From contig CAWBAT010000005.1 in the NCBI GenBank assembly GCA_963786955.1, positions 576,001 through 640,000 on the forward strand: a DNA stretch of 64,000 bases, in the 5' to 3' direction. A program made the translations under genes and the position numbers. Shown here piece by piece: positions 1 through 19,489 of the stretch. The notes under the pieces were generated by a model that did not search any database, had not been told where the DNA came from, and worked only from the letters and a program-made list of their open reading frames with translations. Origin of the DNA: an uncultured Acidimicrobiia bacterium (lineage in GTDB: Bacteria > Acidobacteriota > Terriglobia > Versatilivoradales > Versatilivoraceae). Every line of letters starts with the position of its first letter. The stretch's first letter is position 1.

Positions 1-245
1 ATACCGCTATGGATATGGCAGCTGCCATGGGCATCGAGATTTTAACGGAAGAACAATATCGAGAGTTGCAGAAACTTGGAAATTTCGATACGAAAACGTC
101 GAGCTGGTTGAAAACACCTTCTGAAATTAGAAAACTCGGCGGCGCCATCTTTGCCGATCGTCGCTACGACCATGTCTTCGTGTATCACAACGGTGCGGCC
201 TCTTACTATGGCGTCAGGGGGTTCCGTGGCTCGCTAAGGGTCTAA
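1..245 (+). CDS. DUF4256-family protein, 5' part outside window
   Basis: C-terminal motifs LTEEQYRELQ, DTKTSSW, GGAIFADRRY, YHNGAxSYYxxRGFRG recognised as DUF4256. Confidence 0.8.
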   Translation, partial: TAMDMAAAMGIEILTEEQYRELQKLGNFDTKTSSWLKTPSEIRKLGGAIFADRRYDHVFVYHNGAASYYGVRGFRGSLRV

Positions 246-403
246 ATTTTGCACAGACAGCTAAATTTGAATTGAGAACGGATCACGCAAAAGAGAGGAA
301 TGCAAAAGACAAGGTCTTGTCCGTAAACATCGGCTGGCAACTTGAAGCGCGCACTGGCGCCGCGCGCTTCTCTCAACTCGCCTTGTCCAAGGAGGTAGGT
401 CCT

Positions 404-646
404 ATGCCCGGTAAAGCGTCCAAGTCGAAAGCATTCGTCAAGCTCCACGCGGACGGGAGCGTATGGGCTCGCGGTCAAACAGTGGATGGCGTTCCCACAG
501 GATATTGGGAGTGGTTTCGCAAGGACGGAGTGCGAATGCGTTCAGGCTATTTCGAGTCTGGAGAACAAGTTGATCAATGGACGACGTACGACAAGCGTGG
601 CGCGGTATACAAAGTGACCAACATGAAGCCGAAAGTAAAGGCCTGA
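404..646 (+). CDS. small MORN-variant/YwqK-like repeat protein
   Basis: AAGGAGG RBS before ATG 404; GYWEWFRKDG..MRSGYF..GEQVDQWTTY repeats. Confidence 0.7.
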   Translation: MPGKASKSKAFVKLHADGSVWARGQTVDGVPTGYWEWFRKDGVRMRSGYFESGEQVDQWTTYDKRGAVYKVTNMKPKVKA

Positions 647-830
647 AGATCCCAGGCCACATTCAGCGGTTGCTATGAGATCGATCCGGCGCATCAGCTT
701 TTTGAAGAAGAGAGGCCCTTCCCCAGCGCCTCTGCTAAACCGGCAGTCTGACACAGCGTAGATCACCGGTACTGTCTCGAGGCCATCGCAGCCTTCGAAT
801 TGTTCACGCGCCGTTGATAGGATCGTTTCC

Positions 831-901
831 GTCAAACACGCCTTGCAGCCGACGGTTCCCGCGCACCTGTCCCGGCAAAGGTTATCGGCAGATCGTTAGG
901 C
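831..901 (+). mobile_element. degenerate attC-like site
   Basis: GTCAAAC-ACGCCTTGCAGCCGAC...GATC-GTTAGGC; right core matches GTTRRRY, left core one mismatch from RYYYAAC. Confidence 0.55.
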
Positions 902-1128
902 CATGACTTTCACACTGCCACGGTGATATGATTTTCCTTGTTGAGTCCAACCCTCTTTCGGGACAGAGGCTTCCGTTTCCAGTTATTCTCCCGTGAAGAA
1001 GCACGCTGCAATTGCAGGTTCACAGTCCCAAAAGTGAAACTAAATTCTGGCTAGAACTCAAGATCGAGCTGACTCAGAACTACGGGTTAAACTTGACCGT
1101 TCTATTGAATCAGCGAATGCGGAAGTTG

Positions 1129-2382
1129 ATGCCACAGATCGGCGAGAGTTGGCTAACGAGCCCTACAGTGACGAGACCGACCTATGCGGAGAGCGTGCTC
1201 CCGGCCGGGGCTGCAAACGCGGTGTCGTTGCCATCTGTCTGGGTGCGCAGTCCAGCTTGGGACGGGTTCTGGATGCTGAGTGCGCTCTGGCTGGCGCCGA
1301 TCATCCTGTGGCTTTGCCATGGGTATTCCAACCCGGAGGACAGCCCGCTCGATCTGCTTTACTTCGGCCTAACCGCGCTGTTCTGGATCGGTCATCGCCT
1401 GTCCAGCACATACCTCGCTTATTGCACAGAGGCCTATCGGCCTCTGTTGCGATCGCAGCCGGTCCGGTTCGTCGTCCTCCCGTTGCTAGTAACGGCCGGG
1501 TGCTTTGCTGTCTTTCTTCCGTCGGACACGGCGTTACCATGGAGTCGCGAAGACCGTTTGGTGGCGGTTGCAATCCTCGATTACGTTTTTGTGACGTATC
1601 ACTTTGCCGCACAGCATTTCGGCGCCCTCTCGCTCTACCGCACGCGGGTCGGTCGCAACACCTGCACTTATACAAGAAATATGGACCGGCTCTTCGCGCT
1701 GGGCGTCGGTGGCGTTCTCGTCTTCCTGGCAGACATCCTGGCTGGAGCGGTCGCCTATCAGGACCAATGGGTCGATCGGTGGGTTTTCCCCGCCTGGCTT
1801 GTTTCGGCGCAGGAGGGAATCCGCGCAGGCGCTACAATCACCCTGCTCGCCGCAACAGCTGCAATGCTTTTTGTAGAACTGCGCTCGCCGCGATGGTCGC
1901 TCCCGCGCCTGCTTTACGTTCTGGGAATCGCGGCCATGGTCGCCCTTGCTCTCCGCCCGCGGAGTCTGTTTCTTTTCCTGGTAATCTGGACTTCGCAGCA
2001 CTGGATTCTCGCGACGGGGCTCGCTTCCCAAACGCCGATCGGTGAGCCGGCTCCCGTGCGCGGTGTTGGACGGCGGGTGCTCCACGCATTGAACACGCGG
2101 CCGTGGGCCATTTTGGCGCTCCTTGTGGTTGCGTCGGTCATGCTCTTGCCCCTCTTCGAAGTCGAAGCGATCGGGCAGAATGGAACATATTATGGGGAAC
2201 GGATATTCGGCGCTATCGCGACGGGATTGCGTACGTCTTCATGGGTTCCTGCACTCCTGGCCCTCGGCTTCGCGACCGGGTTCATCCACTATCTTCTCGA
2301 CCGGAGCGTCTATCGAATGTCAAGCCCCCAAATCCGCACCGCGGCTCGTGGTCTTCTCGCCGGGACCGGCAAAACAGTATGA
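1129..2382 (+). CDS. multi-pass membrane protein with conserved His motifs, function unknown
   Basis: many hydrophobic segments; HRLSSTY, YHFAAQHFG, QHW, HYLLDR motifs; start uncertain. Confidence 0.7.
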   Translation: MPQIGESWLTSPTVTRPTYAESVLPAGAANAVSLPSVWVRSPAWDGFWMLSALWLAPIILWLCHGYSNPEDSPLDLLYFGLTALFWIGHRLSSTYLAYCTEAYRPLLRSQPVRFVVLPLLVTAGCFAVFLPSDTALPWSREDRLVAVAILDYVFVTYHFAAQHFGALSLYRTRVGRNTCTYTRNMDRLFALGVGGVLVFLADILAGAVAYQDQWVDRWVFPAWLVSAQEGIRAGATITLLAATAAMLFVELRSPRWSLPRLLYVLGIAAMVALALRPRSLFLFLVIWTSQHWILATGLASQTPIGEPAPVRGVGRRVLHALNTRPWAILALLVVASVMLLPLFEVEAIGQNGTYYGERIFGAIATGLRTSSWVPALLALGFATGFIHYLLDRSVYRMSSPQIRTAARGLLAGTGKTV

Positions 2383-2450
2383 CGCAGAAAAATCACGAGC
2401 AAACCGGAGAAGTTGATAAGAAGAAGAGCTTGAACTGCCTCGCGCCAGCG

Positions 2451-2556
2451 GTCTAACGAAAACGTGCACGCCGATCGCTACAAAAGCGCTGCGGCTGCGC
2501 TGGCAATCCATCAGGCCGCGTCCGAGGCAGTCGTCTGCGAAGCGCGAGTGTTAATG
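2451..2556 (+). mobile_element. possible highly degenerate attC-like site
   Basis: perfect GTCTAAC left core; only imperfect GTTAATG right core. Confidence 0.25.
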
Positions 2557-3087
2557 AGGAGTATCCGCTATGGAGCACGACACAGGCGCATCATCGCTGC
2601 CACCGGAACTTGTGCTCATCTTCCCGGCTGCGTTGTCTGCGTGTCAGCGGTTATCATGCGCCACCTTGCAGCCGCTGCACTGCGAGCCGGCGCGTACCTG
2701 CACTTCAGCAGATTGTCACGTGGTATTCGGCTCGGTATTGGACGCTCTGGGTACTTCTGATCGGCCTTACACAGTTTTTCCTGCGATGCTCGCCGGATGC
2801 GTGAAGTTGATTCGGAACTGGACCGCGTTCCTGACCCGCGGACGGGCCGCTACGGACAACCGTCGGTTGCGATCCTCTCGGACCCTGCGACACGAATTAT
2901 CACAGTAGCAATACCTGGCGGCGGGGGCGATCCTCCGGCGCCGTTGTCGCCTGCACATGCTTGCGGACTGACGGAGTCGTAAGCTTCACGCCTCGGAAAC
3001 AACTAATCCTGCCGAAGGGAGTGCCGCTCCTTTGCTCAAGTCCTGCTCCTCAAGATGCGAGTTACGTTCCAAGCTGCTCCGAGAGGA

Positions 3088-3300
3088 GGTTCTGGGTGCT
3101 TTCAGCAACCTTCCTTGAGTAGCAAGATAAGTCAAATATTGGGCGATGCCTGACTCGCGCAAGGTGCTGGGGTAGCGCTTGTCATGAAATAGAACGAATC
3201 GCTTGGACCAATGGACATACGCCTGCTCGGTGCGGGTACTTCAGTGCCATGTTCTGAAGATCCCCCTCATTTGATCAAGGAGTTTGAGATTTTCATCCAT
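3088..3300 (-). pseudogene. intI: integron integrase N-terminal (SAM-like) domain remnant
   Basis: hand translation MDENLKLLDQMRGIFRTWH*STRTEQAYVHWSKRFVLFHDKRYP...YLTYLATQG/KVAESTQN matches the IntI consensus KLLDQ..HYSxRTEQAYVxWxxRFxxFH..VAxSTQN; in-frame TGA at 3241-3243, a frameshift, no catalytic domain. Confidence 0.88.
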
Positions 3301-3479
3301 AGTTGCTCGAATTAGACAGAATTCTGAACATGGGAATCGATGGGATTGTTTCTGTCTACAATAATGAGCTTAAAATAGAAATATCTTCTGATATTTTTTG
3401 ACTTAAGAAAGTGATTGGCCAATACTGCAGAAGGCAATTAAAGAGAAAACTCGCGAATATTGCAAAGTGCGATATTCAC

Positions 3480-3498
3480 CTTAATCATTAGTTAGAGC
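3480..3498 (+). mobile_element. putative attI site
   Basis: CTTAATCATTAGTTAGAGC at the end of the AT-rich spacer upstream of the divergent intI, just before the first cassette-like gene. Confidence 0.5.
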
Positions 3499-3510
3499 CT
3501 CGGAACCAGC

Positions 3511-4195
3511 GTGGGCCGCCGCTACGGGCGCAGTCGAAACGGGGAGGACGCAGTATGGGGCTTGAAGAATCGGTTGAGGTCACGGGCTAAAGTGCCAGCG
3601 CGGCTTGAGGGTGATGCGCTAGCGGCCGAAATCGAGTGCTGCAAGGCGGCCGCCGTAAGAAGCGGAATACCGCAGAAGGTAGTCAAGTTCTATGGCGACG
3701 GCTTGAAGTATTTTCGCGCTTGGTGGGCGAGCCCAGAGAATAGACGTTGGGTGACTCCAGGTGTCAAGATCGTCGACGTTGGGTCGTGGGATAACGGGTT
3801 CACTTTCGAATATGCGGGACCGCTGCCGCTTTGTTTTCAAGTCCAGACAGCAGGCATATTCCGACGGCGACGGCATCCCGAAGACGTTGACCTCTGGGTT
3901 GAGCGACGGTATCGTTTGCGAAATCGACTGCATCGAATGTCCGGACCAGCACACCAGTGGATTGGATTTCGAAACGCAGACAGGATTAATCGCAGGCCCA
4001 GAAACTGAATTGCTCGGCAAACTCGCCGACGAAGGTCAAGCTCACGCTAAGGAGATGTCGAGGATCAGTGGAGCCGAATCAAGCGCAAGTTGGCGGAAGA
4101 CTCGCGAACGAAGTTTGGTGTCTGATGGTTCCAGTGCGGGCGAAGCCGCCGCGCATCAGCGTTCAGGGTCACGAAAGGACCTTGATTCTGACTAG
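3511..4195 (+). pseudogene. probable frameshifted cassette gene of unknown function
   Basis: GGAGG-ATG at about 3554 and protein-like stretches in overlapping frames (ORFs 3511-4008 and 3761-4195). Confidence 0.35.
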
Positions 4196-4228
4196 CGCCA
4201 TCGTCCTCCGCAGAGACTGAACACACTG

Positions 4229-4762
4229 ATGGCCGCAGTCATTGTCAAATCGTTGGATGAACTCTTTGCGGCGCTCGCGGCTGCGCGCGCCGCAAGGTCG
4301 ATCCGACTGCTTGGCATGGATGGCGAGAACGGCGTCGGGAAGACGACTCTTGCGACGGCGCTCGGTCCAGGGATTCTCGCAAAGACAATCCACCTGGACT
4401 CGCTTCTTGAAAAGGACAAAGGTGGGTTCACGGACTTCATCGACGTAGTACACCTCGCGAAGGAAGTTGAGGAGGCGCTCGCGTCGTCGACCCTCGTCGT
4501 CGTAGAGGGGGTGTGCCTTCTTGCCGTATTGAACGGATAGGCGGCACCCTGACGCACTGATCATGTTCGTCGCGTCGCGTCGTCACGGACACTGGTACAG
4601 CAAGGAGCTTCTTGATGAGATCCCGAGGACGGCGATCCAGAAGAAAGGCTCCGAAGGCGTAATCCTCCACCTTTGGTGATGGAGATCGTCCGGTATCACA
4701 AGGCCTTCTGCCCCGTCTCGCTCGCGGACATCTTGTTCGACGGGTGCAGATCCGATGATTGA
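4229..4762 (+). pseudogene. P-loop nucleoside/nucleotide kinase-like cassette gene, disrupted
   Basis: Walker A GENGVGKTT and Walker B VVVEG; stop at 4540, protein-like text continues in other frames (EIVRYHKAFCP..ADILF) up to the attC. Confidence 0.6.
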
Positions 4763-4768
4763 GCGGCT

Positions 4769-4826
4769 AGCTAACCCTTCATTGCCACGGATTTCCTTCG
4801 GCAACCGCTGAACTCAAACAATAGGC
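4769..4826 (+). mobile_element. attC-like site, right core mutated
   Basis: AGCTAAC-CCTTCATTGCCACGG..CCTTCGGCAACCGCTGAACTCAAAC-AATAGGC; short 59-base-element layout with GTT changed to AAT. Confidence 0.65.
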
Positions 4827-4891
4827 GTCATGGTCGACACTGCCGCCATTTCAAGTCCTAGTCGAAATCGTCATTGACGGAGGCCTAACCA

Positions 4892-5334
4892 ATGCCACGA
4901 GTAAGCACCTATCTGAACTTTTCTCGCTCCACGGAAAAAGCATTTGTCTTCTACCAATCTGTTTTCGGGAGGGAGTTCGCTGGTCCCATTCACCGATTCG
5001 GCGCAGTTCCTGCGGCGCCAGGGCAGCCACCGTTAGCCGAGTCCGACAAGAAGCCTCGTCATGCCACATCGAACTCCCAATCCTTGGCGGCCATGTTTTG
5101 ATGGGCACTGATGCTCCAGAGTACTATGGGCTTCTCGTTGACACAGGGCAATAACGTCTAAATCAATATTGAGCCGGATACCCGCGCTGAGACAGACAAA
5201 CTTTTCAATGCCCTATCTGATCAACGGGAAAGTCGAGATGCCCTTGCAGGACATGTTCTGGGGAGGCTACTTCGGCAGCCTTACCGATACAGTTCGGGAT
5301 CCGCTGGATGTTCAACTGCGCCAGTAAGACCTAA
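4892..5334 (+). pseudogene. VOC/PhnB-family protein, disrupted
   Basis: STYLNF, FYQSVFG, IELPILGGHVLMGTD, MPLQDMFWGGYFGSL, FGIRWMFN spread over several frames with an internal stop. Confidence 0.8.
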
Positions 5335-5360
5335 GTGCCCCACGTGCTATAGAGTTTGGA

Positions 5361-5510
5361 ATGACGAATTCAAAACAAATCGCGGGATTGATCGGTCCAA
5401 CTATTATTGGTATTGCGCTCACTATATCCGAAGCGATGAATCTTCAGATCTGGGCGAACAATATCGCTCCTGTCACTTATCTCATCAGTGCCTGGATTAA
5501 ATGGAATTGA
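5361..5510 (+). pseudogene. truncated membrane protein fragment
   Basis: MTNSKQIAGLIGPTIIGIALTISEAMNLQIW.. ends abruptly; approximate end. Confidence 0.35.
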
Positions 5511-5533
5511 GTTTTGGGGAGCATAACGTGCAA

Positions 5534-5911
5534 ATGAAATCTATCTGGGCCGTGGTTGCGGGCGTGATCTTCATCCTCGTTTCCACGACCCTTGTCGACA
5601 TCGCTCTTCACGTAACCGGCGTCTTCCCGCCTATGGACCAGCCGATCAACGACGCCCTCGCCCTGCTTGCAACCTCCTATCGCATCGCCATCAGCGTCTC
5701 CGGCGCCGGGCTTACAGCCCGGCTGGCACCGGATAAGCCCATGAAGCACGCGATGATCCTTGGCTATATGGGCATTGTCTTGGGCCTTGTGGGCGTCGTA
5801 GCAACCTGGAACTTGGGGCTCGGACCCAGGTGGTACCCGATCTCGCTCGTCGCGCTGGCGATACCGCAATGCTGGGCTAGTGGCAGGATCTACGAGATGC
5901 AGGCGGGCTAG
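5534..5911 (+). CDS. small four-TM membrane protein (cassette gene)
   Basis: four hydrophobic helices, GPRWYP motif; followed by attC. Confidence 0.75.
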   Translation: MKSIWAVVAGVIFILVSTTLVDIALHVTGVFPPMDQPINDALALLATSYRIAISVSGAGLTARLAPDKPMKHAMILGYMGIVLGLVGVVATWNLGLGPRWYPISLVALAIPQCWASGRIYEMQAG

Positions 5912-5955
5912 CGCTGAAGGTTGATTTTGATTCAGCGAATCGGCGACGGGGTGCC

Positions 5956-6020
5956 GCATAACAAGCCGTTGTAGACTGACGGGCGCTGCGCGCCCGCAGC
6001 TTAACGGCGGGAGGTTAGGC
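5956..6020 (+). mobile_element. attC site
   Basis: GCATAAC-AAGCCGTTG..GGGCGCTGCGCGCCC..TTAACGGCGG-GTTAGGC; both cores and inner complementary boxes present. Confidence 0.8.
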
Positions 6021-6184
6021 CGATCAGATACCCAATATTGATCATTACGGCAGTGACGACCTTGTGCGTGCAACCGCTTATCGATTATTTTGTCTGAGAC
6101 GGGAGTGACTTCTGGAGATGTCGGCATCTAGACGGCTTAGGGATCTTGGGTCAGGTAGCTGACCTCACGACAAAGGCACTGGAG

Positions 6185-6940
6185 ATGGATACACTCACGG
6201 GTAAAGTAGCGATCATTACGGGCGGAGCGTCCGGCATCGGCAAGGCAGCGGCGGAGGTGTTGGCCGAGGCCAATCTGTCCGGCTTGACCATTGCGGACAT
6301 CGACGGAAAGGCGGCTGAGGAAGTCGCGACCGAGATCTGCCGCCGATTCGATACGGAGGCCATTGGCGTCGCCACAAACGTCGCTGTGGCCGCCGAAGTC
6401 GAGGCGATGTGCACCCTGACATTGGAGCATTTCCACCGGATCGATATTCTCGTGAACAACGCCGGCATTGCTCCGGTGGTCCCGTGGGCGGATGTGACGG
6501 AGGCCAACTGGCGGCACGTGCTGGATATCAATTTAAACGGGGCGTTGCTCTGTATGCTGGCCGTATTGCCGACCATGCAACGACAGCAGGCCGGCCGCAT
6601 TGTCAATATCTCCTCCGCCGGAGCGTTTCTCGGAAGTATCTGCGCACATCCCGCCTATGGCGTCGCGAAGGCGGGCCTGATCGCCCTGACCAAATCCGCG
6701 GCCAAGGCGTTTGCCACGGACGGCATCCTGGTCAATGCCGTCGCCCCGGGAAGTATTGACACGCCGATGGCCCAAAGCTTCGGCGAGGCGCAAGTGGAGG
6801 CATTTCGCCAAGCTGCCCCCCTGAAGCGCCAGGGTAGCCCGCGTGAAATTGCGGATGCTGTCTGGTATCTCGTGTCGGATCGATCCACTTATGTGACCGG
6901 CGCGACGTTGCATGTCAATGGGGGCTCGTTGTTAGTCTAA
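6185..6940 (+). CDS. SDR oxidoreductase (FabG-like)
   Basis: TGGASGIG, NNAG, YGVAK, VNAVAPG motifs. Confidence 0.9.
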   Translation: MDTLTGKVAIITGGASGIGKAAAEVLAEANLSGLTIADIDGKAAEEVATEICRRFDTEAIGVATNVAVAAEVEAMCTLTLEHFHRIDILVNNAGIAPVVPWADVTEANWRHVLDINLNGALLCMLAVLPTMQRQQAGRIVNISSAGAFLGSICAHPAYGVAKAGLIALTKSAAKAFATDGILVNAVAPGSIDTPMAQSFGEAQVEAFRQAAPLKRQGSPREIADAVWYLVSDRSTYVTGATLHVNGGSLLV

Positions 6941-7068
6941 TCAGTCCTGAACCCCATGGGATTCGGAGTCCACTGCATGTCAGGCCGGGCCTGGTGTGGA
7001 GTACGGTCGGGATTAAGAAGGCACACAATGTTCAGCAGGTCAGTCCGAGAGTGACCAAGGAGAGATCG

Positions 7069-7467
7069 ATGTCTAAATACGCTCAGTGCATTATTGAACC
7101 AGAGACCTTTCCCCTGTGGGAAGCACCGGATGTGTCGCGCTGTGTGACGCCGCTGATCACACCGGCGTCATGTGGATCCAAACAGATGGCGACGGGGCTG
7201 TGGCGACTATATCCCGGCCATGAATCGGATCCGGACATCCACCCTGATGCGGACGAGATTTACTACGTCGTCAGTGGCGAGGGGACACTCGTGTTGGGGG
7301 AGGAAACTTACACTGTGCGGAAGGGTATGACCGTCTTCATCCCCGCCAACGTGCCGCATCAGTCCTTCAACCGCGGAAAGGAAGATCTGGTCTATTACTT
7401 CGTCTTCGCCCCTCCGCCAAGTGGTCCTTCAAAGCAGGAGGCCCAGGGCTGGGTGAAATTGCGGTAG
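7069..7467 (+). CDS. cupin domain protein
   Basis: AAGGAG RBS; HPDADEIYYVVSGEG...IPANVPH cupin motifs. Confidence 0.85.
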   Translation: MSKYAQCIIEPETFPLWEAPDVSRCVTPLITPASCGSKQMATGLWRLYPGHESDPDIHPDADEIYYVVSGEGTLVLGEETYTVRKGMTVFIPANVPHQSFNRGKEDLVYYFVFAPPPSGPSKQEAQGWVKLR

Positions 7468-7550
7468 GACGGGTGGCGGACAACCGGGAGATCGGCCTAT
7501 CCACCGCAACAGCCGATCTTCTCACTGCTTATTATTTCATGGTAACCGCT

Positions 7551-7958
7551 ATGTTCTTCAAAGACCTGAGCACCTGTGCCTACTTCGCCCGCGGCGTCAA
7601 CGTGCGGGCAATCGGTTGGCTGGAGGATGGTCACCCCTACCGCCAGGGCGAAGTGTCCGCCGAGTTCCTGGCCGTGCTCAAGGCGCAAATCGCCATTGCG
7701 TACCAGGCCGTTCACTTTTTGGGCTCCCATAGTTGCAGCTTGTGCCCGAAGGGCCAAGAGCGCACCGGCTTTCGCAACTTGTTGGTTCCCACCGGTGAAC
7801 TGCTGTATGTAGCGCCGGAGTTGGTGGTCCACTACATCGAGGGCCACGACTATCAGCCCCCTGAGGAATTTATGGTCGCGGTGATGGCTTGCCCGGAGCA
7901 GAATTCGGCCGCATTCCTGCAGTTGCTTCAGCCATTCGAGTACAGTTGGACAGTATAG
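7551..7958 (+). CDS. conserved hypothetical protein with possible metal site (cassette gene)
   Basis: AIGWL, GSHSCSLC, YVAPELVVHYI..HDYQPP motifs; followed by attC. Confidence 0.7.
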   Translation: MFFKDLSTCAYFARGVNVRAIGWLEDGHPYRQGEVSAEFLAVLKAQIAIAYQAVHFLGSHSCSLCPKGQERTGFRNLLVPTGELLYVAPELVVHYIEGHDYQPPEEFMVAVMACPEQNSAAFLQLLQPFEYSWTV

Positions 7959-7959
7959 C

Positions 7960-8028
7960 GCTTAACAATTCGCTTGAGCGGATGCATGCCAAACACGGCG
8001 ACCACCGCTCAGTTCAAGGTCGCTAGAC
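7960..8028 (+). mobile_element. attC-like site
   Basis: GCTTAAC directly after the stop codon; TGAGCGG/CCGCTCA inner inverted pair; right core GCTAGAC (GTT changed to GCT). Confidence 0.7.
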
Positions 8029-8051
8029 TGCTTTAATGGACAAGAGCCAGG

Positions 8052-8240
8052 ATGCCAGTTGACCGTTTCAACCGACGGCTGAGTTACCTCTCTCTCTTTA
8101 TCACTCCGTTCCTCGTGTTCGTCGTGGGGGCCGTGCGCGCGCTGCGCATCTCAGGGGTGTATCACTCCCTTGAAGCAGTACTGATCACTGCTATCTCCGT
8201 GTCAGCGTGGAAACTTGACGGGTGGCGAAGACATGTGCGG
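8052..8240 (+). pseudogene. membrane cassette gene truncated by a MITE
   Basis: hydrophobic N-terminus directly after attC; ORF runs into the MITE at 8241. Confidence 0.45.
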
Positions 8241-8492
8241 TTAGCCCGGATTTCTCACCACCGGGGGAAAACAGAAACAGTAGAGTAGCGAAACCATTTG
8301 AATTCAGAGCTCCTTGGCAACGTAGGGAACGCTGCGGCGAGCGTTCCCTACAAACAGTTCGACAATTTCTTTCCACCGTTCTTTTTCCTTGGGAAGAGGA
8401 ACACAATAATGAATTATCGGCTCCCCTCGCCCCAACGCGGGAGAGGGGCTGGGGGGGGAAATGCGGCGCTGGTGACGAGAAATTTGGATTAG
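8241..8492 (+). mobile_element. MITE copy A with internal REP-like hairpins
   Basis: ends TAGCCCGGATTTCTCA / GAGAAATTTGGATTA; internal GTAGGGAACGC..GCGTTCCCTAC palindrome; reverse complement of 12338-12611. Confidence 0.8.
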
Positions 8493-8877
8493 CATGTCTT
8501 CGAATCTATTGACTCACTTCGAGATTTTTTGTGATGGCAGAACTACTGGCCGGAAAACATGGCGGTGCGCTGCTCGAGGATGTCGGGTCCTCCAGAAACC
8601 GCTTATCCAGGGCTTCTTGAGGGAGAAAGAGTGTTTTAATCCTTGAAAAACTTTCTTTTGGAATCGATCTTTCTATCCGCAATCTCTCTAACCTGGCCCG
8701 ACTCCGTCGTATCTCTTATTCCCCCTCTTCCCCGCCGCTTACCTTCTCCCCCGATAACTCCAATAGAATCTGACCCACATTTCTGGTGTTTTTCAAACGG
8801 TGCACTTTCAGACTTGCTTATCCTTTGGTTCACTGATGCCGAAATGAATGGGGAAACCAGTTGGAGCTCCACCCCTT

Positions 8878-9183
8878 ATGAATATTGATACTCACGCCAT
8901 CCCCCGCAGAGGGCCGCGATTTGAAATCAAGCTGCCGGTCACGGTCAGTGGAATTACCAAGGACGGACACTATTTTAGGCGGCCTGCCGAAACCCTCAAT
9001 GGAAGCACAGAAGGCATGGGATTGCTTTTGGACCAAGAGTTGGATCCCTTTGCCGCCCTGGTCATTTCCATTTCGCGCAACGAACAGGTCCTTCAAATTC
9101 AATCCGAAGTTCGTCACGTTACACCCTTTGACAAGCAGAGGAATCTGGTCGGCGTCAAATTCAGGAAGATGGCGTTTGTTTAA
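8878..9183 (+). CDS. PilZ-domain protein
   Basis: RRGPR (RxxxR) and NGSTEG (D/NxSxxG) c-di-GMP motifs. Confidence 0.8.
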   Translation: MNIDTHAIPRRGPRFEIKLPVTVSGITKDGHYFRRPAETLNGSTEGMGLLLDQELDPFAALVISISRNEQVLQIQSEVRHVTPFDKQRNLVGVKFRKMAFV

Positions 9184-9348
9184 GGCTGATGGATCCTTAT
9201 ATTACCGCGACACATTCAACCATAAATCTTCGTGGCTACCAGTTCTTCATTCCAGGAGCATCGTCTGGTAGAGAATGAGATAAAATCATCCGAATCATTG
9301 CAAAGCCGCTATACTGCCTCATGATTTGACAAGGATCTAAGGATCCAT

Positions 9349-10852
9349 TTGGCGGCGTCTCCATTGGCAAGCAACGACAAACAGACAAGAACAAAAACGA
9401 CCGATAACCTGCTCATTCTTCTTACGGGTGCGACAGGCTACATTGGCGGGCGTTTGCTCCAGTTGCTGGAACATCGCGGCTATCGAGTACGTTGCCTGGC
9501 CCGACGTCCTGAATTTCTCAGGCCAAAGGTCTCGCCATCGACAGAAGTTGTGCCCGGAGACGTGCTGGATCGCCGCAGCCTTGAATCAGCCTTTCAGGGA
9601 ATCGGTGCGGCCTACTACCTGGTTCACTCGATGGGTTCGGCGGGATCCTTTGAGGAGAATGATCGACAAGCAGCCCGCAACTTCGGCGAGGCTGCGAAAG
9701 TCAGCAGGGGTGAAGCGCATCATCTACCTGGGCGGTTTGGGGAACGAACACGAAACGCTCTCGCCACACTTGCGCAGCCGCCAGGAAGTCGGACAGATCC
9801 TGCGCGAGTCGGGCATACCTGTGGTCGAGTTTCGCGCCTCTATTGTCATCGGGTCTGGGAGCCTGTCCTTTGAAATGATCCGCTCGTTAGTGGAACGGCT
9901 GCCGATCATGATCACCCCGAAATGGGTATCCATGCGAGCGCAGCCGATTGCGGTGGACGATGTGATCGCGTACCTGATCGCGGCGATTAATTTGCCGCTT
10001 TCCGAACACCATATTTATGAGGTCGGCGGAGCAGACCAAGTATCTTACGCCGATATCATGCGCGCCTATGCGCGGCAGCGCGGGATGCGCATCCGGATGA
10101 TCCCAGTGCCCGCGCTGACCCCCTTTCTGTCCAGCTTGTGGCTGGGACTGGTCACGCCTTTGTATGCTCGCGTCGGGCGCAAGCTCATTGAGAGCATCGT
10201 GCATTCAACGGTAGTTCGCGATGATACGGCACTGAAGACGTTCGACATCCGCCCAATAGGAATCGAGGAAGCACTCTCTCACGCACTGGCCAGGGAAGAG
10301 AAGCAGTTTGCCGCTACAAGGTGGTCTGATGCGCTGTCCACCTCGCCCCTAGTCTCTTCGTGGGGTGGCGTGCGATTCGGAATGCGGCTCGTTGACTCGC
10401 GGGCGACTCGTCTAGCCATTCCGCCTGAAGTTGCCTTCAAGCCCATTCAGCGGATTGGGGGCGACACAGGCTGGTACGCCTGGAACTGGCTGTGGCGGTT
10501 CCGAGGCTTTGTCGACCTGCTGGCGGGGGGCGTAGGCGTGAGGCGTGGGCGCCCGATGCCGGAAACTTTGCGCGTTGGCGATGCCGTCGACTTCTGGCGC
10601 GTGGAGGTGTTCGAGCCCCACCGGCGTCTGCGTCTTGCCGCCGAGATGAAATTACCCGGGCGGGCGTGGTTGGAATTTGAGGTTAGCGGAGACGAGTCTT
10701 CGGCAACGATTCGCCAGACAGCAATTTTTGACCCGGTGGGGTTTTTCGGGCAGGTTTACTGGTACGCGCTTTATCCCGTACATCAGCTCGTGTTTGGTGG
10801 CATGCTGAAGGGTATCGTAGCCGCAGCTCTTCGTGACGAAGCGAAGGGCTAA
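9349..10852 (+). CDS. YbjT-like NAD-dependent epimerase with C-terminal DUF2867; frameshift near 9700
   Basis: TGATGYIG, YYLVHSM in frame 1; KRIIYLGGLG to GDAVDFWRV/AEMKLPGRAWLEF in frame 2. Confidence 0.85.
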
Positions 10853-11167
10853 AGAATGACCCCAACACATCTCACCCGTAGGCTGACACTCCGCCACTTT
10901 ATCCCGATCTTGCAGGATCGGGCCACTGCCTCTTCACCCGATTTACGGACCTGACAATTGGGCTCCAATTGAATGTTTGTATTTCATTTGGCCGCAGGCT
11001 AGAATCACGCGAAGCTAGCTCAAATCGTGGCTTCACGCGCACTTGATCCAGTTTCATGTCCGCTCCAGTGGTTGATGACTAAGACGTTGACCCGACCTGG
11101 ACACTCACAGAGGGATCACACGTGCCGGCGGCTTGTTGTGCTGGCATGAACCGCCCTGAGGAGGCAC

Positions 11168-11611
11168 TTGTTCGCAGATCTTGAAGATCTCGCTGGACGA
11201 TTTTTGGCGGGCACAATCCCGTTCGGAGAATGGACCCATCAGGCACATCTGGCCGTCGGAACGTGGCATGTGAGCCGATATGGAGCCAAAGAGGCGCTTG
11301 CACGTCTTCGGATCGGAATCCAGTGTCTGAATGAGAAACATGGAACGCCCAATTCGTTGACGCGGGGTTATCATGAAACGATTACCTGCGCCTATGTCCA
11401 GCTTCTTGCAGAGTTTCTTGCGAGTTGTCCTCCAGGGATGCCGCTCCAAGAGCAAGTGGTGTGCCTCTTAGAGGGCCCGGTGGCTGACAAGAATCTGCTT
11501 TTCAAATTCTATTCCCGTGAGACCCTAATGTCTGCACGAGCGAGGTCTGAATGGGTCGAGCCGGACATTGCACCGCTGAGATTAGATGGTATTCTTGGAA
11601 AGCAAAGTTAA
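11168..11611 (+). CDS. conserved hypothetical protein
   Basis: WTHQAHL, GYHETIT, YSRETLMS..AR..WVEPD family motifs. Confidence 0.7.
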   Translation: MFADLEDLAGRFLAGTIPFGEWTHQAHLAVGTWHVSRYGAKEALARLRIGIQCLNEKHGTPNSLTRGYHETITCAYVQLLAEFLASCPPGMPLQEQVVCLLEGPVADKNLLFKFYSRETLMSARARSEWVEPDIAPLRLDGILGKQS

Positions 11612-11716
11612 GACCGAATCCCGAAGTTGCTTGCCCGAACCTGAATAGAGACCTTACCAAGCAGCTCTACCTTCGGCGTTGTGAATCAAAACAATCCAGT
11701 ACAGGAGGTACTTTAG

Positions 11717-12301
11717 ATGAGTAAGGGAAGGCTGGAAGCGTTCAGTGATGGCGTGATTGCCATCATCATTACCATCATGGTGCTCGAATTAAAGGTGCCC
11801 CATGAAGCCACATTGGCGGCACTGATCCCAGTGTTCCCGGTATTTTTAAGCTATATTCTCAGTTTTGTCATTCTCGGCATCTACTGGAATAACCATCATC
11901 ACTTACTCCAGGCTATCAAGCAGGTAGACGGACGTGTGCTTTGGGCCAATTTACATCTGCTGTTCTGGTTGTCCCTCATCCCCTTTGTCACGGGGTGGGT
12001 AGGGCAGAATCATTTTGCCGCCTGGCCGGTGGCACTTTACGGCGTGGTGCAATCCTTTGCCGCCGTCGCTTATTTTATTCTCACCCAAGTCCTCATCTTT
12101 CTGCACGGCAGAGATTCCGCTCTGGCGACTGCAATAGGCCGGGACTTCAAAGGCAAGGCCTCAACGGTGGTCTTTTTTGTGGCGGTTCCTATTGCCTTTC
12201 TGAATTCGTGGTTCGCCTTCATCTTGTACGTTATGGTTGCCGTCATGTGGCTCGTCCCCGATCGTCGGATTGAAAAAACACTAGCCGAACGGGGCACGTG
12301 A
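11717..12301 (+). CDS. TMEM175/DUF1211 potassium channel family protein
   Basis: AGGAGG RBS; RLEAFSDGVIAIIITIMVLE and YWNNHHH motifs. Confidence 0.92.
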   Translation: MSKGRLEAFSDGVIAIIITIMVLELKVPHEATLAALIPVFPVFLSYILSFVILGIYWNNHHHLLQAIKQVDGRVLWANLHLLFWLSLIPFVTGWVGQNHFAAWPVALYGVVQSFAAVAYFILTQVLIFLHGRDSALATAIGRDFKGKASTVVFFVAVPIAFLNSWFAFILYVMVAVMWLVPDRRIEKTLAERGT

Positions 12302-12337
12302 TCTCAACGAGAAGCGGCCTTCGAACAATCCTGAAGC

Positions 12338-12611
12338 CGGCACAGATTTCTCACCAAGAGCGTCGCATTCCCCCTCACCCCCTGAAGCAGTCTCAATGCT
12401 TCAGCCTCTCCCGCGTTGGTGCGAGGGGAGCCGATAATTCATGATTGGGTTCCTCTTTCTAAGGGAGAGAGAAGGTGGAAAGAAATTGTCGAGCTATTTG
12501 TAGGGAACGCTCTCCGCAGCGTTCCCTACGTTGCCAAAGAGCTCTGAATTCAAATCGTTTCACTACTCTACTGTTTCTGTTTTCCCCCGGTGGATGAGAA
12601 ATCCGCGCTAG
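12338..12611 (-). mobile_element. MITE copy B (inverted relative to copy A)
   Basis: reverse complement aligns by eye with 8241-8492 over almost the whole length; extra CTGAAGCA..TGCTTCAG hairpin. Confidence 0.8.
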
Positions 12612-12623
12612 TGTCCATGGGCG

Positions 12624-13178
12624 TCAGTGAATATGCCTGATCTCCGGCGCAGTTCTCCAGTTTCTCTTTTCAATGAGACGAACATTGGGGACATCTTTCA
12701 ACCAAAGCAGGTAGGTTTGCAGTTTGCGTAGCTCTTGGTCTAATGCATCTCCCATAAATGGCGTCACATAAATGGTGTTTCCGTAATGACGCTCGAGCTT
12801 CTCAGGACTGTCATCGATAACCACGATGCTCTCCAGAGAAAAGCCAAGCCGTCTGACTTTTTTGAGATCTTTAATCCAATGGTCTTCCCCTGAATCAGTA
12901 TCGAATCTCCGTGTGCAACGATTTCGTGTCCATACAAATTGAAGCTTTTCCGGATTTTCAAATATTGTCCTGACGACATCGTTTGCATAGCCAGAACCCG
13001 ATGAGGTCCAGACGGCAACCTTGAAGTACGCAAACGCAAATTCGATGAAGCTCTTGAGATCGGGCCGCTGGTAAACGAAATAAGACCCAACTCGAAAGTC
13101 TTCTGTGCGGGACAACTTCTGTTCGGTGGCAAAAACCAGTGTTTCATCGAGGTCGAGAATGAGCAGTTTGGTCACCAT
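12624..13178 (-). CDS. NIF/FCP1-like HAD phosphatase
   Basis: LDLDETL, VWTSS, KDL, IDDSP motifs. Confidence 0.88.
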   Translation of the reverse strand: MVTKLLILDLDETLVFATEQKLSRTEDFRVGSYFVYQRPDLKSFIEFAFAYFKVAVWTSSGSGYANDVVRTIFENPEKLQFVWTRNRCTRRFDTDSGEDHWIKDLKKVRRLGFSLESIVVIDDSPEKLERHYGNTIYVTPFMGDALDQELRKLQTYLLWLKDVPNVRLIEKRNWRTAPEIRHIH

Positions 13179-13326
13179 GGCTTTATTAGCGACATTTTCT
13201 TGAAAGGTTTGTCGATCGGAAACTCAGCCGACCCACCCTGACACCCCTCCAGTGGAGGAGAATTGAGGCAAATCTCGATTGGGGAAGGCGCATCTTAAGA
13301 ATTTGCTCTTTAAGGCATCCGAGTCC

Positions 13327-14253
13327 TTACCTCCGGAGCCGGACATAGGCACGTTTGGCAAGGTAAAGAAAGTGCCCGACCACGCCTCGATCTTGCGCTT
13401 GCAGAAGCTTGGCTATCTCAGCGTATTGCTCGCGAATATGGTCATCGCGTACGGCAAACAGGTGCTTCATTTCAAGAACATCTTCGTGGCAGAGGACATA
13501 GCCTTCAGTGAATCGGTCATCCAGTTGACGATTCACATAAACTGTGGAGTGCCTGCCCGCGGTCTGTTCCGGGGGGCGTTCAGTCGTATAAAAATAAAGC
13601 GCAATGGATTTGCGCGACAAGGCCTTTTTGCCGGCAGGCAGGCGAATCTCAGAAAACCCATGCCAGCTTTGTTCACTTGTTTCGAAGAGGACGCCGCGAT
13701 TGAATAGAGGCAGAATCGCTTTAATCGGACGCGCTTCCCTCCGCGGATCGGAAAACAATTCGAGCGATCCGCCCCAAGCCGAGTCCCATTCCGGATTGAG
13801 ATAAACGATTAGATTGAGGCGCCGGTGCCAGCGTTCGCTGGGGTGGTAGTTGAAATCAATGTGGGCATCTAGGCCTTGCCCTTCGCGGTTTTCATGCGTA
13901 CCGCCTCCGAGGTAGAACGGGTCGTAGATCAAATCGGGAATTCCCGTAAGCTTACTGATAATCTCCAGAAACTTACGTGTCTGAATGGTTGCGTCCAGGC
14001 GGGAGTAAGTGCTCCCCAATTTGCGAATTCGGTCGAAGGTTGATTTGCTACCCACTTTCCCGTCATCACCGACAGCGCTGCCTCGCTCGAAGGCCGGGAA
14101 TTCTTCATACAGAGTTGTTGCGAATTCAGGAGAAAAAAAGCCATCGATAACAACATGGGGAAATGGCACCCCGGTAATGAATTGCTGGCGGTATGTCTCC
14201 GCTTTGTCGATTAGGTGCGCAGCAAGTATGGAAGGCTCTTCAAAATCAGTCAC
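13327..14253 (-). CDS. 2OG-Fe(II) oxygenase (prolyl-hydroxylase-like)
   Basis: PFPHVVID, GGGTH, HIDFN, RRLNLIVYLN, SWHG, RKS. Confidence 0.88.
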   Translation of the reverse strand: MTDFEEPSILAAHLIDKAETYRQQFITGVPFPHVVIDGFFSPEFATTLYEEFPAFERGSAVGDDGKVGSKSTFDRIRKLGSTYSRLDATIQTRKFLEIISKLTGIPDLIYDPFYLGGGTHENREGQGLDAHIDFNYHPSERWHRRLNLIVYLNPEWDSAWGGSLELFSDPRREARPIKAILPLFNRGVLFETSEQSWHGFSEIRLPAGKKALSRKSIALYFYTTERPPEQTAGRHSTVYVNRQLDDRFTEGYVLCHEDVLEMKHLFAVRDDHIREQYAEIAKLLQAQDRGVVGHFLYLAKRAYVRLRR

Positions 14254-14310
14254 ATTGTCCTCTGAAATGGATCCACGATTTCAACGCCAATCGCAAGTCA
14301 GCCAGGGACT

Positions 14311-14733
14311 TTACCATGGATCGTAGGTGCCGAAGTTCCACAGATGGCCTTCTAGGTCACGGCATGAAAAGCCGCGCCCACCATAATCTTCATCCTTGAT
14401 GTCGAGTACGATTTTAGTGTCGGCGGCTTTGGCGCGTGAATAGACCACGTCTGCATCGGCAACAATCACATAGGGAGTCTGGGTTTCAGCGCCACCAATC
14501 TCGTCAGGTTGTTTCATCAGCCTCCCAAATTCCGAATCCACAATCGAGCCGAGCATGATCATCCCGTTCCCAAAGCTGAGCTGAGCATGGGCGATGGTTC
14601 CATCCGGGTTAGGCACGACCAGTTGCTTCTCGAAACCAAACGCTTCGCAAAGCCACTCAATCGCGGCGGGTGCATTACGATAACGGAGACAAGGGATGAC
14701 GGTGGCCTTTGTATTCTTTGCGAAAGTAGGCAT
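14311..14733 (-). CDS. VOC/glyoxalase family protein
   Basis: IPCLRY, HAQL, YGGRGFSCRDLEGHLW. Confidence 0.9.
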   Translation of the reverse strand: MPTFAKNTKATVIPCLRYRNAPAAIEWLCEAFGFEKQLVVPNPDGTIAHAQLSFGNGMIMLGSIVDSEFGRLMKQPDEIGGAETQTPYVIVADADVVYSRAKAADTKIVLDIKDEDYGGRGFSCRDLEGHLWNFGTYDPW

Positions 14734-14745
14734 GGATTTCTCCTC

Positions 14746-15003
14746 TCAACATCTGTTCATGATGTTTAATGATTGCCAGTCGAATGACGCCGGACCATTG
14801 ACCCGCCAAATACCAAGGCCCAATGTAATGACGCCCAGCCAAAAGCTGAAAAAGAAGAGTAGACCCGGATCAATCGGATTGGGATTAGGGTCCGGCCAGA
14901 CCCCGACGTCCGCCAGAAAGATGATACCGAGCAGCGGGGCGCTTCCAACCATGAGTACGCCGAGTCCAATGCGAACTAATCGATCAGAAAAATACCCACG
15001 CAT
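14746..15003 (-). CDS. small two-TM membrane protein
   Basis: two hydrophobic helices around DPNPNP. Confidence 0.55.
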   Translation of the reverse strand: MRGYFSDRLVRIGLGVLMVGSAPLLGIIFLADVGVWPDPNPNPIDPGLLFFFSFWLGVITLGLGIWRVNGPASFDWQSLNIMNRC

Positions 15004-15319
15004 ATTTGTCTATGACTCGATCGAAAAGTGACGGTAGAAGCATATCACATCGGATTCAAAGAAAGGTCAGCGGCGCGCCGGAGTATCGAGTACAAACGCA
15101 AAATGTGATTTCATCAATCCGGCGCGACCTCCCTCAAGTCCCCCCTTGTTCAAGGGAGGACAGTCGCGAGGGACAGTGCCGCGTCTTCAACCGACCTAAG
15201 GGCCGAGTTCTAGGAGGCCGGATGACGCGTAGGGCTATCGCGGCGGCGCGGAACTCCGCCATCCTTCAACTGATTCCTCCTTTGAAGGGGGTGCAGGGGG
15301 ATGTTTCGATTCATCTCGA

Positions 15320-17167: not shown

Positions 17168-17379
17168 CCGTAATGAGTAACTCAAACGGAATTTAATGTC
17201 CAGCTGTCGCTTGGAAGTGGGTTGCCCTCGATGCAACCTGTCTGGCTTGTATCCAGTGCAAAAATGAACGATTACCGGATGTAGCGACTCTTGTAGGTAG
17301 GGAGGTTTCGTCGAAACCCCGATTGACGGCACTCTCGGCAGCACGCCCTACCTTGAACGGCAAGATTCCCGAGCAATGC

Positions 17380-17931
17380 TCATTTAGACGGGGTTTTCCC
17401 CGTATTGAGGATCATTGGCGGTATTCCAAAATGTCCACCCATTTTTGCGAGATCAACCGGTCCTACGATGTTAACAACGGTCAATTCTTTGGGTTCAGCC
17501 GAAAGAATAGCCAAGCCGACAATCTTGTCACCACTGAGCATGGAATAAATCTCTGTGGACTCTTTTTCCTGCTTGCTATGTACACTCACGATCCTTGTCC
17601 AGCCTGGGGACTGCAACTGCTTGCGGATCAAGTCGAGATCAGCCTGAGAATAAACCCCTTCCTTCTCAAATTCGAAACTCCTGACATAAATTCCCTTCAG
17701 ACCTGAGACGAGTTCCTTAATCTCTGCATCAGTCTCACCTTTCGAAAGAAACTTGCTGGCTGTCTGCAACATGGGTCCTTCAAGGTCGACGTCAGAAACC
17801 TCGGATGCCTTTGCAGCCAGCTTATCCAGATGGTCGATTTTAAGCTTTGCCTCTTGGCCATAAGCCAAGGGGACCACGATCACAAGGAGTGACCCTAAAC
17901 AGAGAAGGCAATACAATTTCAAATTCTTCAT
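17380..17931 (-). CDS. DUF4252 exported protein
   Basis: signal peptide; LKGIYVRSFEF, ELTVVNIVG. Confidence 0.82.
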   Translation of the reverse strand: MKNLKLYCLLCLGSLLVIVVPLAYGQEAKLKIDHLDKLAAKASEVSDVDLEGPMLQTASKFLSKGETDAEIKELVSGLKGIYVRSFEFEKEGVYSQADLDLIRKQLQSPGWTRIVSVHSKQEKESTEIYSMLSGDKIVGLAILSAEPKELTVVNIVGPVDLAKMGGHFGIPPMILNTGKTPSK

Positions 17932-18048
17932 GAATCCTCCTTATTAGAAATTTGGAACTGCCTCTATGCGTTCTAATGCCAATGCTGTCTGTTGGCTACT
18001 AATTGAAAGTCCATTGGAATTCACGCTTGAAGCCCTCAGCTTTAAGTC

Positions 18049-18423
18049 TCACCGTTCCACTCGATCAAGGGTTTCTTTATTTTGAATCCTCAACAGTTTC
18101 TTCTGAACAATGCTCAACTTCTCATTTGCAATCCTCAGAGCCAAAACGAGTTGTTCCTTCGCCCTCTCTCCCTCAACCTCTGCCAGTCGATGGTTTTCGA
18201 CCCTTCGATAACCGAGCCGTCCCAAGCCCACCAACAGACAGGCCAAAACACCGACGGCCGCCCAGCGCAGCCTTGGTGCTACCAAGAGCTCACGAAGAGT
18301 CTTCTTCCAACTAATGTCATGCTTTTCGCGGACAGCAATCATCTCAAGAAGCCGAGCGGTGAAGAGGGCAGATGGTTCTTTCCTCGATAAGGCTTTTCGG
18401 AGTTGGTTTTCAAATTTGTTCAT
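18049..18423 (-). CDS. single-TM anti-sigma factor
   Basis: overlaps sigma stop (ATGA); FENQLRKAL N-terminus and one TM helix. Confidence 0.7.
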   Translation of the reverse strand: MNKFENQLRKALSRKEPSALFTARLLEMIAVREKHDISWKKTLRELLVAPRLRWAAVGVLACLLVGLGRLGYRRVENHRLAEVEGERAKEQLVLALRIANEKLSIVQKKLLRIQNKETLDRVER

Positions 18424-18959: not shown

Positions 18960-19489
18960 TCGAACTGTCTCACTCCAAGCCTTTCATTTCCTATATACGC
19001 AAAATATAGCTCTTGCGAATGCAATTTTTTTTGGAGGACCAGTAAACGCAATCTTCCGAAAGACAGAACCAGGCGGCGTTGGCTTCTGATAGGGTTGACC
19101 TGCAAAGCCGTCCGCATTCCCCGACAGCGGTCGCTCTCCTGAGGGGCTAACTACAGATTGGATCATCTGTTCAAAACTAGTACAAACCGAGGATGGAAAC
19201 ACCGGGAACGAAAAGGAAGTAAAAGACAGAGATTTTTGTGGCTGCCGGCGAAGTTTGATTATCAACTGGAAGAGAATTCTATTGTGCGACGACATCGGAA
19301 GGGTGGTCTTAAGCGATCCGAAAGAACCTGGAGTGGCGCAAGAATAGAGGGGGCGGGCCAGGGTTTAGTTTTTTTCTTGGCGCACTTGGCGTTTCGGTTT
19401 TCCGACGGCAGGTTCGCGATCAAGGTCTAGAGTTAACGGTTATGGGTCGATCCCAACCCAAGAAAAAATCAAGCCCCCCCTTGTCCTCT

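Follow-up and report, generated by a model that had tools for sequence, protein, structure and literature searches.

The question raised by this locus is whether a short segment of the chromosome of an uncultured Acidobacteriota bacterium is the remnant of an integron and, if so, which parts of an integron it still contains. The window analyzed here is a stretch of 64,000 nucleotides (assembly GCA_963786955.1, contig CAWBAT010000005.1, positions 576,001 to 640,000), for which a first-pass annotation had proposed a decayed integron at 3088–8240, consisting of a stub of the integrase gene (intI), an attI site, and a cassette array with three attC sites. Our analysis indicates that window positions ~3085–8028 very probably represent a decayed chromosomal integron. 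The proposed layout is real: the intI stub is divergent from attI and the array, and every gene treated as a cassette (3511–8288) is on the plus strand according to the list of open reading frames (ORFs). The interpretation given in the first-pass annotation is supported, with corrections regarding the attC site at 4769, an intact intI acting in trans, and the novelty of integrons in Acidobacteriota; the observation as a whole is partly confirmed. The core parts of the element are listed below (R1 and R2 are attC covariance models, both built without window sequence).

3085–3300, minus strand: intI stub, N-terminal SAM-like domain of an integron integrase (profile matches and translations)
3301–3497, plus strand: attI region, including a candidate cassette promoter, with GTTAGAG (3491–3497) as crossover core (seven-head alignment)
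5956–6020, plus strand: intact attC with R'' GCATAAC, R' GTTAGGC, and a bulged stem (R1, R2, and fold)
7960–8028, plus strand: eroded attC with R' GCTAGAC at 8022–8028 (GTT changed to GCT), directly after the stop codon of the DUF7919 gene (R1 and R2)
4769–4826, plus strand: first of the three proposed attC sites, at best heavily eroded, with R' AATAGGC at 4820–4826 in a non-significant alignment (unsupported)

On the minus strand, the frame starting with the ATG at 3300 reads an IntI-like N-terminus with a TGA at codon 20 (3241–3243); past ..YLATQGR, the IntI-like sequence (..KVAESTQN..) resumes in a different frame, with one base missing near 3116 relative to the paralogue on contig C4, which represents a frameshift. 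Similarity to intI stops near 3085, both against the proteins of relatives and against the C4 copy at the DNA level. All five intact IntI proteins of relatives matched 3070–3339 (34–42% identity over 71–90 residues), and none of these five matched farther to the left of the stub. In profile searches, residues 7–65 of the stub matched positions 1–59 of the 85-position profile PF13495 (Phage_int_SAM_4; E = 5.6e-12), and only two NCBIfam families were found with E ≤ 0.01, both representing integron integrases (NF011946, E = 1e-13; TIGR02249, E = 4e-11, profile positions 1–59 of 315). The scores of 51 and 43 bits, respectively, are well under the full-length cut-offs, as expected because only 59 positions are matched. 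The stub is 57% identical to the longer IntI fragment on C4, while the Xer-like recombinase of this genome is only 19% identical to that fragment, which speaks against an origin of the stub from XerC/D. The intact IntI proteins of relatives contain an IntI-specific segment in the catalytic domain, which the Xer-like protein lacks. This segment is also absent from the stub, as the gene is truncated at ~codon 72, well before the segment; the stub is therefore what is left of an intI gene and cannot be called an IntI protein. The RHRY catalytic residues of tyrosine recombinases are absent and the C-terminal domain is gone, as judged by profile search and by comparison with the IntI proteins of relatives. 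The stub corresponds to the 5′-terminal fifth of intI, a gene that is dead three times over, by TGA, frameshift, and truncation, and the previously suggested death of the integron is borne out by an integrase of only ~72 codons without a catalytic half.

A blastn search with 3061–3500 against the genome identified four copies of this intI–attI module (here called a head) at ~81% identity, window copy included:

Window: head described above
C5:573010–573318: second head
C4:290155–290559: third head
C4:117011–117283: fourth head

Three further heads were found among the 31 genomes of the family that were searched, all of them in the same-genus genome G002 and none in the other 29. When these seven heads (four from this genome and three from G002) were aligned, all seven could be aligned through ...TTAATCATTA (3481–3490, ending in ...ATTA); GTT comes next in five of them, TCG in the head at C4:290k, and TTT in the head on contig C10 of G002. 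Past this point, the heads carry unrelated DNA (mean identity 0.31). The comparison confirms the attI site, as shared DNA followed by a different first cassette in each head is the signature of an attI crossover, and the spacer end that had been called attI-like was correctly placed. Mean identity over the 21 head pairs was 0.80 for the 110 nt preceding the crossover, 0.58 for the intI-proximal half of the spacer, and 0.50 for the intI part; as the heads are kin, these values are suggestive only of an attI core that may be better conserved than the intI part. A promoter-like sequence, TTGACT-17-AATACT (3398–3426), is directed into the array and is located inside the block conserved among heads. 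The length of the intI remnant differs per head (~504, 215, 110, and 77 bp).

The other heads of this genome are accompanied by cassette arrays of their own. The C5:573k head (L029 17010–17318) contains ~110 bp of intI and an attI ending in GTTAGAG; it is located 2.7 kb before the window start and 6 kb upstream of the window head, in the same orientation, and is followed by an EEP-like gene and an alpha/beta-hydrolase-like gene (both named by eye only) and by two strong attCs (L029 18051–18113 and 19422–19482; 40 and 41 bits). On C4, two truncated heads with arrays of nine and six attC matches are located at C4:117011–127724 and C4:289913–295952; the C4:290k head retains 167 intI codons and is cut off beside dispersed repeats. 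A second short repeat, which contains a GC-rich inverted repeat (L029 16850–16925, L009 3820–3885), adjoins the intI truncation point in two of the four heads and has 11 blastn matches genome-wide.

The attC sites were evaluated with the two covariance models. R1 was built from 14 short attCs beside intact intI genes in four relatives (G003, G004, G007, and G017), without any sequence of this genome and with R/L pairs set by hand; in its alignment, 84% of cells pair, both sides have changed in 14 of 21 pairs, and none of 500 shuffles scored as high. R2 was built from 22 attCs of this genome located outside the window. R1 was run on window positions 1–20000 with filters off, and E values are given at the 20 kb scale. 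Two hand-made attC scanners had been discarded in favor of these models, as their R-box pairing was too strict and missed sites visible by eye; RNAalifold alone, applied to the attC alignment, recovered the inner stem only, and the R/L pairs were therefore set by hand and checked by covariation. The site at 5956–6020 is a sound and confirmed attC: it scored 33.3 bits with R1 (E = 2.5e-6) and 34.5 bits with R2 (E = 1e-7), and its bottom strand folds as DNA at −18.9 kcal/mol (z = −4.18; none of 200 shuffles as stable), with bulges on one arm. The site at 7960–8028 scored 17.2 bits with R1 (E = 0.023) and 17.3 bits with R2 (E = 0.006 at 20 kb); it is weakly supported as an eroded attC, credible because it directly follows a stop codon, is on the cassette strand, and is 1.9 kb from the good site. 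Two eroded attCs picked by eye (6944–7040 and 7484–7539; fold z = +0.37 and −1.75) matched neither R1 nor R2 and were rejected. Outside the element, a weak attC-like R2 match (10.5 bits, E = 0.48, R' GTTAGGC) was found at 831–901 on the plus strand, between a MORN-like ORF and a gene encoding a 456-aa membrane protein; it may represent the eroded end of the array of the C5:573k head.

The array genes and the filler left of the stub are as follows.

2803–3084, no strand: filler between a small membrane ORF and the intI stub, left part of a ~3.3-kb segment absent in G002
3498–4768, plus strand: decayed proximal cassette remnants (ORF list, frames by eye)
3511–4008 and 3761–4195, plus strand: unknown gene split over two frames (ORF list)
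4229–4540, plus strand: P-loop kinase-like gene, broken by TAG and frame changes up to ~4762 (frames by eye)
4892–5340, plus strand: VOC/glyoxalase-like cassette gene, pseudogene (aligned to an ORF of G001)
5501–5911, plus strand: intact 136-aa membrane-protein ORF, last gene before the attC at 5956 (ORF list)
6146–6940, plus strand: SDR oxidoreductase, intact (Pfam)
6994/7069–7467, plus strand: cupin, intact (Pfam)
7473/7551–7958, plus strand: DUF7919 protein, intact (Pfam)
8052–8288, plus strand: 78-aa ORF that ends inside a dispersed repeat (ORF list)

The remnants at 3498–4768 matched no Pfam family and presented weak NCBIfam kinase matches only (E = 5e-4 and 2e-3); no Pfam or NCBIfam family was found for the 136-aa membrane-protein ORF. 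Compared to an intact 168-aa ORF of the same-genus genome G001, the VOC-type gene contains four insertions and a TAA replacing a sense codon, which bears out the proposed decay of the cassettes. We read this decay as real because three lesions are stop substitutions, the loss of intI is a truncation, and the high density of lesions stands in contrast to four intact neighboring genes (encoding the 136-aa membrane protein, SDR, cupin, and DUF7919 protein). Decay is strongest in the cassettes closest to the promoter. Among 22 public sequencing runs listed, 20 contain some words of 2700–8300 (at most 0.20 of the words); contigs of four runs (X1, X2, X3, and X5) cover 6250–8300 and almost nothing of 2887–6250, a gap that is no evidence of absence, and contigs of three runs bridge the cupin gene, the DUF7919 gene, the eroded attC, and the 78-aa ORF.

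The public-run contigs break at 8241, the start of a dispersed repeat at which the array ends, and the end coordinate of 8240 given in the first-pass annotation matches this start. The repeat (8241–8470; ~200–250 bp) includes a perfect 12-bp hairpin and has an inverted copy at 12405–12610; it presented 80 blastn matches in the genome, of which roughly ten are nearly full-length (89–95% identity). One copy adjoins the truncated C4 intI, and copies are found in G002 as well. It is possibly an element similar to miniature inverted-repeat transposable elements.

Genome-wide, R1 yielded 29 matches at E ≤ 10 among the 150 of 2019 first-look candidates that were scored; 23 of these 29 are located within five clusters:

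C4:117849–127724
C4:291159–295952
C4:897186–903785
C5:574051–575482
Window

Four of these five clusters begin at one of the four heads. The cluster at C4:897186–903785 (L031, minus strand) includes seven attC matches, is headless in its contig, and stops 0.9 kb short of where this contig ends. A search with filters off of three loci that lie outside the window identified 18 sites with E < 0.01 on the expected strand. A six-frame TIGR02249 search of this 93%-complete assembly produced 13 matches, none of which reached the 265-bit cut-off; the best was the 167-codon C4 fragment (190 bits, positions 1–146). The suggestion that an intact intI elsewhere in the genome might act in trans thus found no support within this assembly. 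Intact intI genes were found in nine of 41 genomes searched, eight of them from the same family, and neither same-genus genome has one. An alignment-based IntI search confirmed 570 of 601 stretches, with a best identity of 64% (Acidobacteriota-labelled and other records of metagenome-assembled genomes), and identified no intact close relative of the heads. At C6:130703–131509 of this genome, a tyrosine-recombinase gene is broken and contains a TGA; the IntI model matches it in three pieces without the IntI-specific part, no attC was found nearby, and it is probably a Xer- or phage-type pseudogene.

This anatomy is that of classical integrons, and the mechanism we infer is therefore the classical one, in which folded attC sites of circular cassettes would serve as IntI substrates for recombination with attI. 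While functional, IntI would have placed promoterless cassettes into the G|TT of attI (3491/3492) through recombination between attI and attC, and transcription into the inserted cassettes would have come from the candidate promoter of the spacer (3398–3426). What is observed today is an integrase gene that lacks all sequence past ~codon 72 and has gained a stop codon and a frameshift, with no intact intI assembled at any other place in the genome. Since this loss, cassettes would presumably have been neither excised nor added, and attC sites would no longer have been maintained by use: the site at 5956–6020 has stayed intact, that at 7960–8028 no longer has its GTT core, and the rest have been lost or become unrecognizable. 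Promoter-proximal cassette genes are now pseudogenes, and the distal genes, which are intact, are presumably under selection. All four paralogous truncated heads of this genome, each with its own cassettes, appear frozen.

Several observations weigh against this reconstruction or against parts of it. The eroded attC at 7960–8028 is not significant in the genome-wide R1 search (E = 6.6), and its bottom-strand fold is ordinary (z = −0.93; 34 of 200 shuffles as stable). The site at 4769 yielded no R1 match even at E ≤ 10 with filters off, scored 8.8 bits with R2 (E = 1.4), and folds at chance level (z = −0.14 and +0.29). Of the three attC sites claimed for the array, the one at 5956 (33–35 bits) is therefore upheld, including by the bottom-strand fold that had been suggested as a check, the one at 7960 is retained as weak (17 bits) without support from its fold, and the one at 4769 fails models and fold alike; the mutated GTT cores reported for two of the sites can be read in the sequence (GCTAGAC at 8022–8028 and AATAGGC at 4820–4826, the latter under a non-significant alignment). 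Neither R1 nor R2 identified an attC over 6020–7960, among the SDR, cupin, and DUF7919 genes; these genes either are cassettes that no longer have their attCs or, in the case of SDR and cupin, may be ordinary genes. Two promoter consensus matches were found in the region versus 2.4 expected by chance, and 3398–3426 is a candidate for the cassette promoter (Pc) on the basis of consensus match and conservation only. The stop codon of the stub and the individual cassette indels are as read from the assembly, with public-run contigs covering 6250–8300. In an assembly that is 93% complete, and with 0.9 kb between the C4:897186–903785 cluster and the end of its contig, the head of this cluster or even an intact intI could be unassembled. 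Finally, the SDR-cupin pair of G002 is located beside the 456-aa gene with no attC there, and this part of the array may be ordinary chromosome.

The last point is best seen from the comparison with the sister species. Contig C6 of G002 is collinear with the window region: it shares the upstream genes and, where the C5:573k head is located here, contains an attI head followed by other cassette DNA, the 456-aa membrane gene with a small membrane ORF (corresponding to window 1079–2801, 91% identity), and then the SDR-cupin pair (corresponding to window 6114–7484, 88%), a peptidase gene, and the shared downstream genes. The junction between the two matching segments in G002 comprises 4 bases by BLAST coordinates and ~8 other bases by eye. 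G002 is thus without window ~2803–6116 (~3.3 kb), which holds the filler, stub, attI, decayed cassettes, and good attC. A blastn search of 2383–3085 found no second copy in this genome. Neither a crossover site nor a significant repeat is found at the ends of ~2803–6116, which agrees slightly better with an illegitimate deletion in G002 than with an insertion in the present genome; the absence of the whole region from G001 is compatible with either polarity. A 15-nt inverted match (2756–2770 and 6014–6028) was rejected as a boundary, since a match of this kind is close to chance in 3.7 kb (estimated 0.3 expected). The small membrane ORF (2570–2908, plus strand) is open and conserved in G002; it has an extra T near 2666 in this genome, representing a frameshift or an assembly error. 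At the orthologous head in G002 (L119, C6:366000–384000), a 487-aa gene is found where intI would be located, the head is directly followed by a gene that is frameshifted and, judged by eye only, NmrA-like, and no attC is detectable in the array.

These data raise the possibility that only ~2803–6116 (the filler, stub, attI, decayed cassettes, and one attC) is integron-derived. The SDR-cupin pair and the upstream 456-aa gene would then be ordinary genes of the lineage, the DUF7919 gene with the eroded attC would be a lone cassette at a secondary site, and the fragment would have been inserted into, or later deleted from, a conserved gene row. Such a limited extent is rather unlikely, yet it is the most probable of the alternatives. 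The segments on both sides of ~2803–6116 are adjacent in G002 at identities (91% and 88%) like those of the flanking core genes (84–92%), R1 was applied to 39 kb surrounding the three heads of G002 without detecting an attC, R2 identified none near the SDR-cupin homologues of G001, and there is no attC match between 6020 and 7960. On the other hand, the SDR-cupin genes have an attC match of the same strand on either side and share the orientation of the array, the distance separating the flanking core genes differs among the three species of the genus (~4.7, 8.4, and 11.8 kb), and erosion of attCs is demonstrable at this locus. We retain the interpretation of ~3085–8028 as one decayed integron.

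A further scenario, which goes beyond the window and seems distinctly improbable, is that the genus keeps a family of integrase-less heads (at least seven attI-promoter modules in two species, with different cassettes) in which the attI core would be under selection after the death of intI. The heads would still act as promoters and possibly as landing pads for a transient IntI from a plasmid, a neighbor, or an unassembled locus, and a head with its cassettes might be moved or lost as a block inside the array of another head, as may have happened to ~2803–6116. Still less probable is the explanation that the heads are not independent relics and are copies of an attI-promoter module that was spread or homogenized without integrase, by duplication or gene conversion, and kept for driving downstream genes. 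This explanation would account for the four heads of this genome being 0.81–0.88 identical mutually versus 0.56–0.80 to the three G002 heads, for the higher conservation of the attI core (0.80) than of the intI part (0.50), and for the dispersed repeats that adjoin truncated intI in two heads. However, such identity contrasts are weak evidence, as the sequences compared are kin and thus not independent; a search at the window head revealed neither terminal repeats nor duplications; and the differences among heads in intI length (~504 to 77 bp) and in first cassettes fit separate integrons that are eroding rather than a single mobile unit.

Two other explanations hardly survive. That the integron is alive, with the stop, the frameshift, and the broken cassettes being assembly errors, is very improbable, since the catalytic two-thirds of intI are absent rather than frameshifted, the TGA, TAA, and TAG are substitutions and not indels, and neighboring genes of 136 to 456 codons are intact. 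It is equally improbable that there is no integron at all, the stub being a XerC/D or phage-integrase fragment and the hairpins being due to chance or similar to repetitive extragenic palindromes: PF13495 does occur in other tyrosine recombinases and the stub is too short to show the IntI-specific insertion, but the NCBIfam matches of the stub are to integron-integrase models only, its identity to the C4 IntI fragment (57%) far exceeds that of the Xer-like protein to the same fragment (19%), this C4 paralogue matches positions 1–146 of the IntI model at 190 bits, and attC matches are clustered downstream of heads on the cassette strand.

A decayed chromosomal integron at this locus documents integron death in a soil and sediment phylum with few detailed descriptions. 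In one genome with four platforms, the integrase has been lost to a different extent in each; the docking site and promoter appear to outlast the integrase gene, with attC sites and cassettes eroding afterwards. N-terminal intI stubs such as this one are invisible to searches for the C-terminal domain of IntI alone, and orphan arrays may therefore adjoin integrase remnants more often than the 15 of 279 reported in the survey discussed below. Nothing fundamental is changed in the general understanding of integrons. A narrow literature search, which is no proof of absence, found no account of an acidobacterial genome with more than one truncated head.

Among known systems, the Vibrio superintegron is a sedentary chromosomal integron whose intI is active and whose long array contains attCs that are nearly identical. 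The element described here shares with it the chromosomal location and the divergent intI–attI–array layout; in contrast, its intI is dead, its array is short, and its attCs are heterogeneous. A closer likeness is found among clusters of attC sites lacking integron integrase (CALIN), for which loss of the integrase from a complete integron has been proposed as one origin (IntegronFinder; Cury et al. 2016, PMC4889954). As in a CALIN beside an intI pseudogene, an attC array without a working integrase adjoins a recognizable intI remnant here. The same survey, which searched by the C-terminal domain, reports pseudogenes near only 15 of 279 CALIN and multiple integrases in 20% of integron-bearing genomes (PMC4889954); a search of that kind would miss the stub in the window, where the N-terminus alone survives. 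With regard to the definition of CALIN (at least two attC within 4 kb, no intI), the element is borderline, with one strong and one weak site 1.9 kb apart according to our own models, R1 and R2. In Xanthomonas chromosomal integrons, intI has been killed by stops, frameshifts, or deletions, repeatedly and in a lineage-specific manner, and the array has then been stable (Gillings et al., as summarized in 10.1101/2025.06.18.660453). The window integron resembles these in being chromosomal, with an intI dead by stop, frameshift, and deletion; however, Xanthomonas is described as having one platform at a fixed site (ilvD; 10.1101/2025.06.18.660453), while the present genome, from another phylum, contains truncated heads at four separate sites, including a tandem pair spaced by 6 kb. 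The phylum was said in the first-pass annotation to be one where integrons are little studied, which holds insofar as few have been described in detail; yet acidobacterial cassettes and attCs are catalogued well enough that an Acidobacteria-specific attC covariance model has been built (Ghaly et al. 2021, PMC8352920), while the attCs of the window were scored with our own models derived from relatives. The element thus belongs to a known type of relic, in which attC sites cluster next to a pseudogene of intI. The modest addition made by this genome consists of its four heads, their nested degrees of truncation, and the apparent persistence of an attI-promoter core beyond the loss of the integrase gene.

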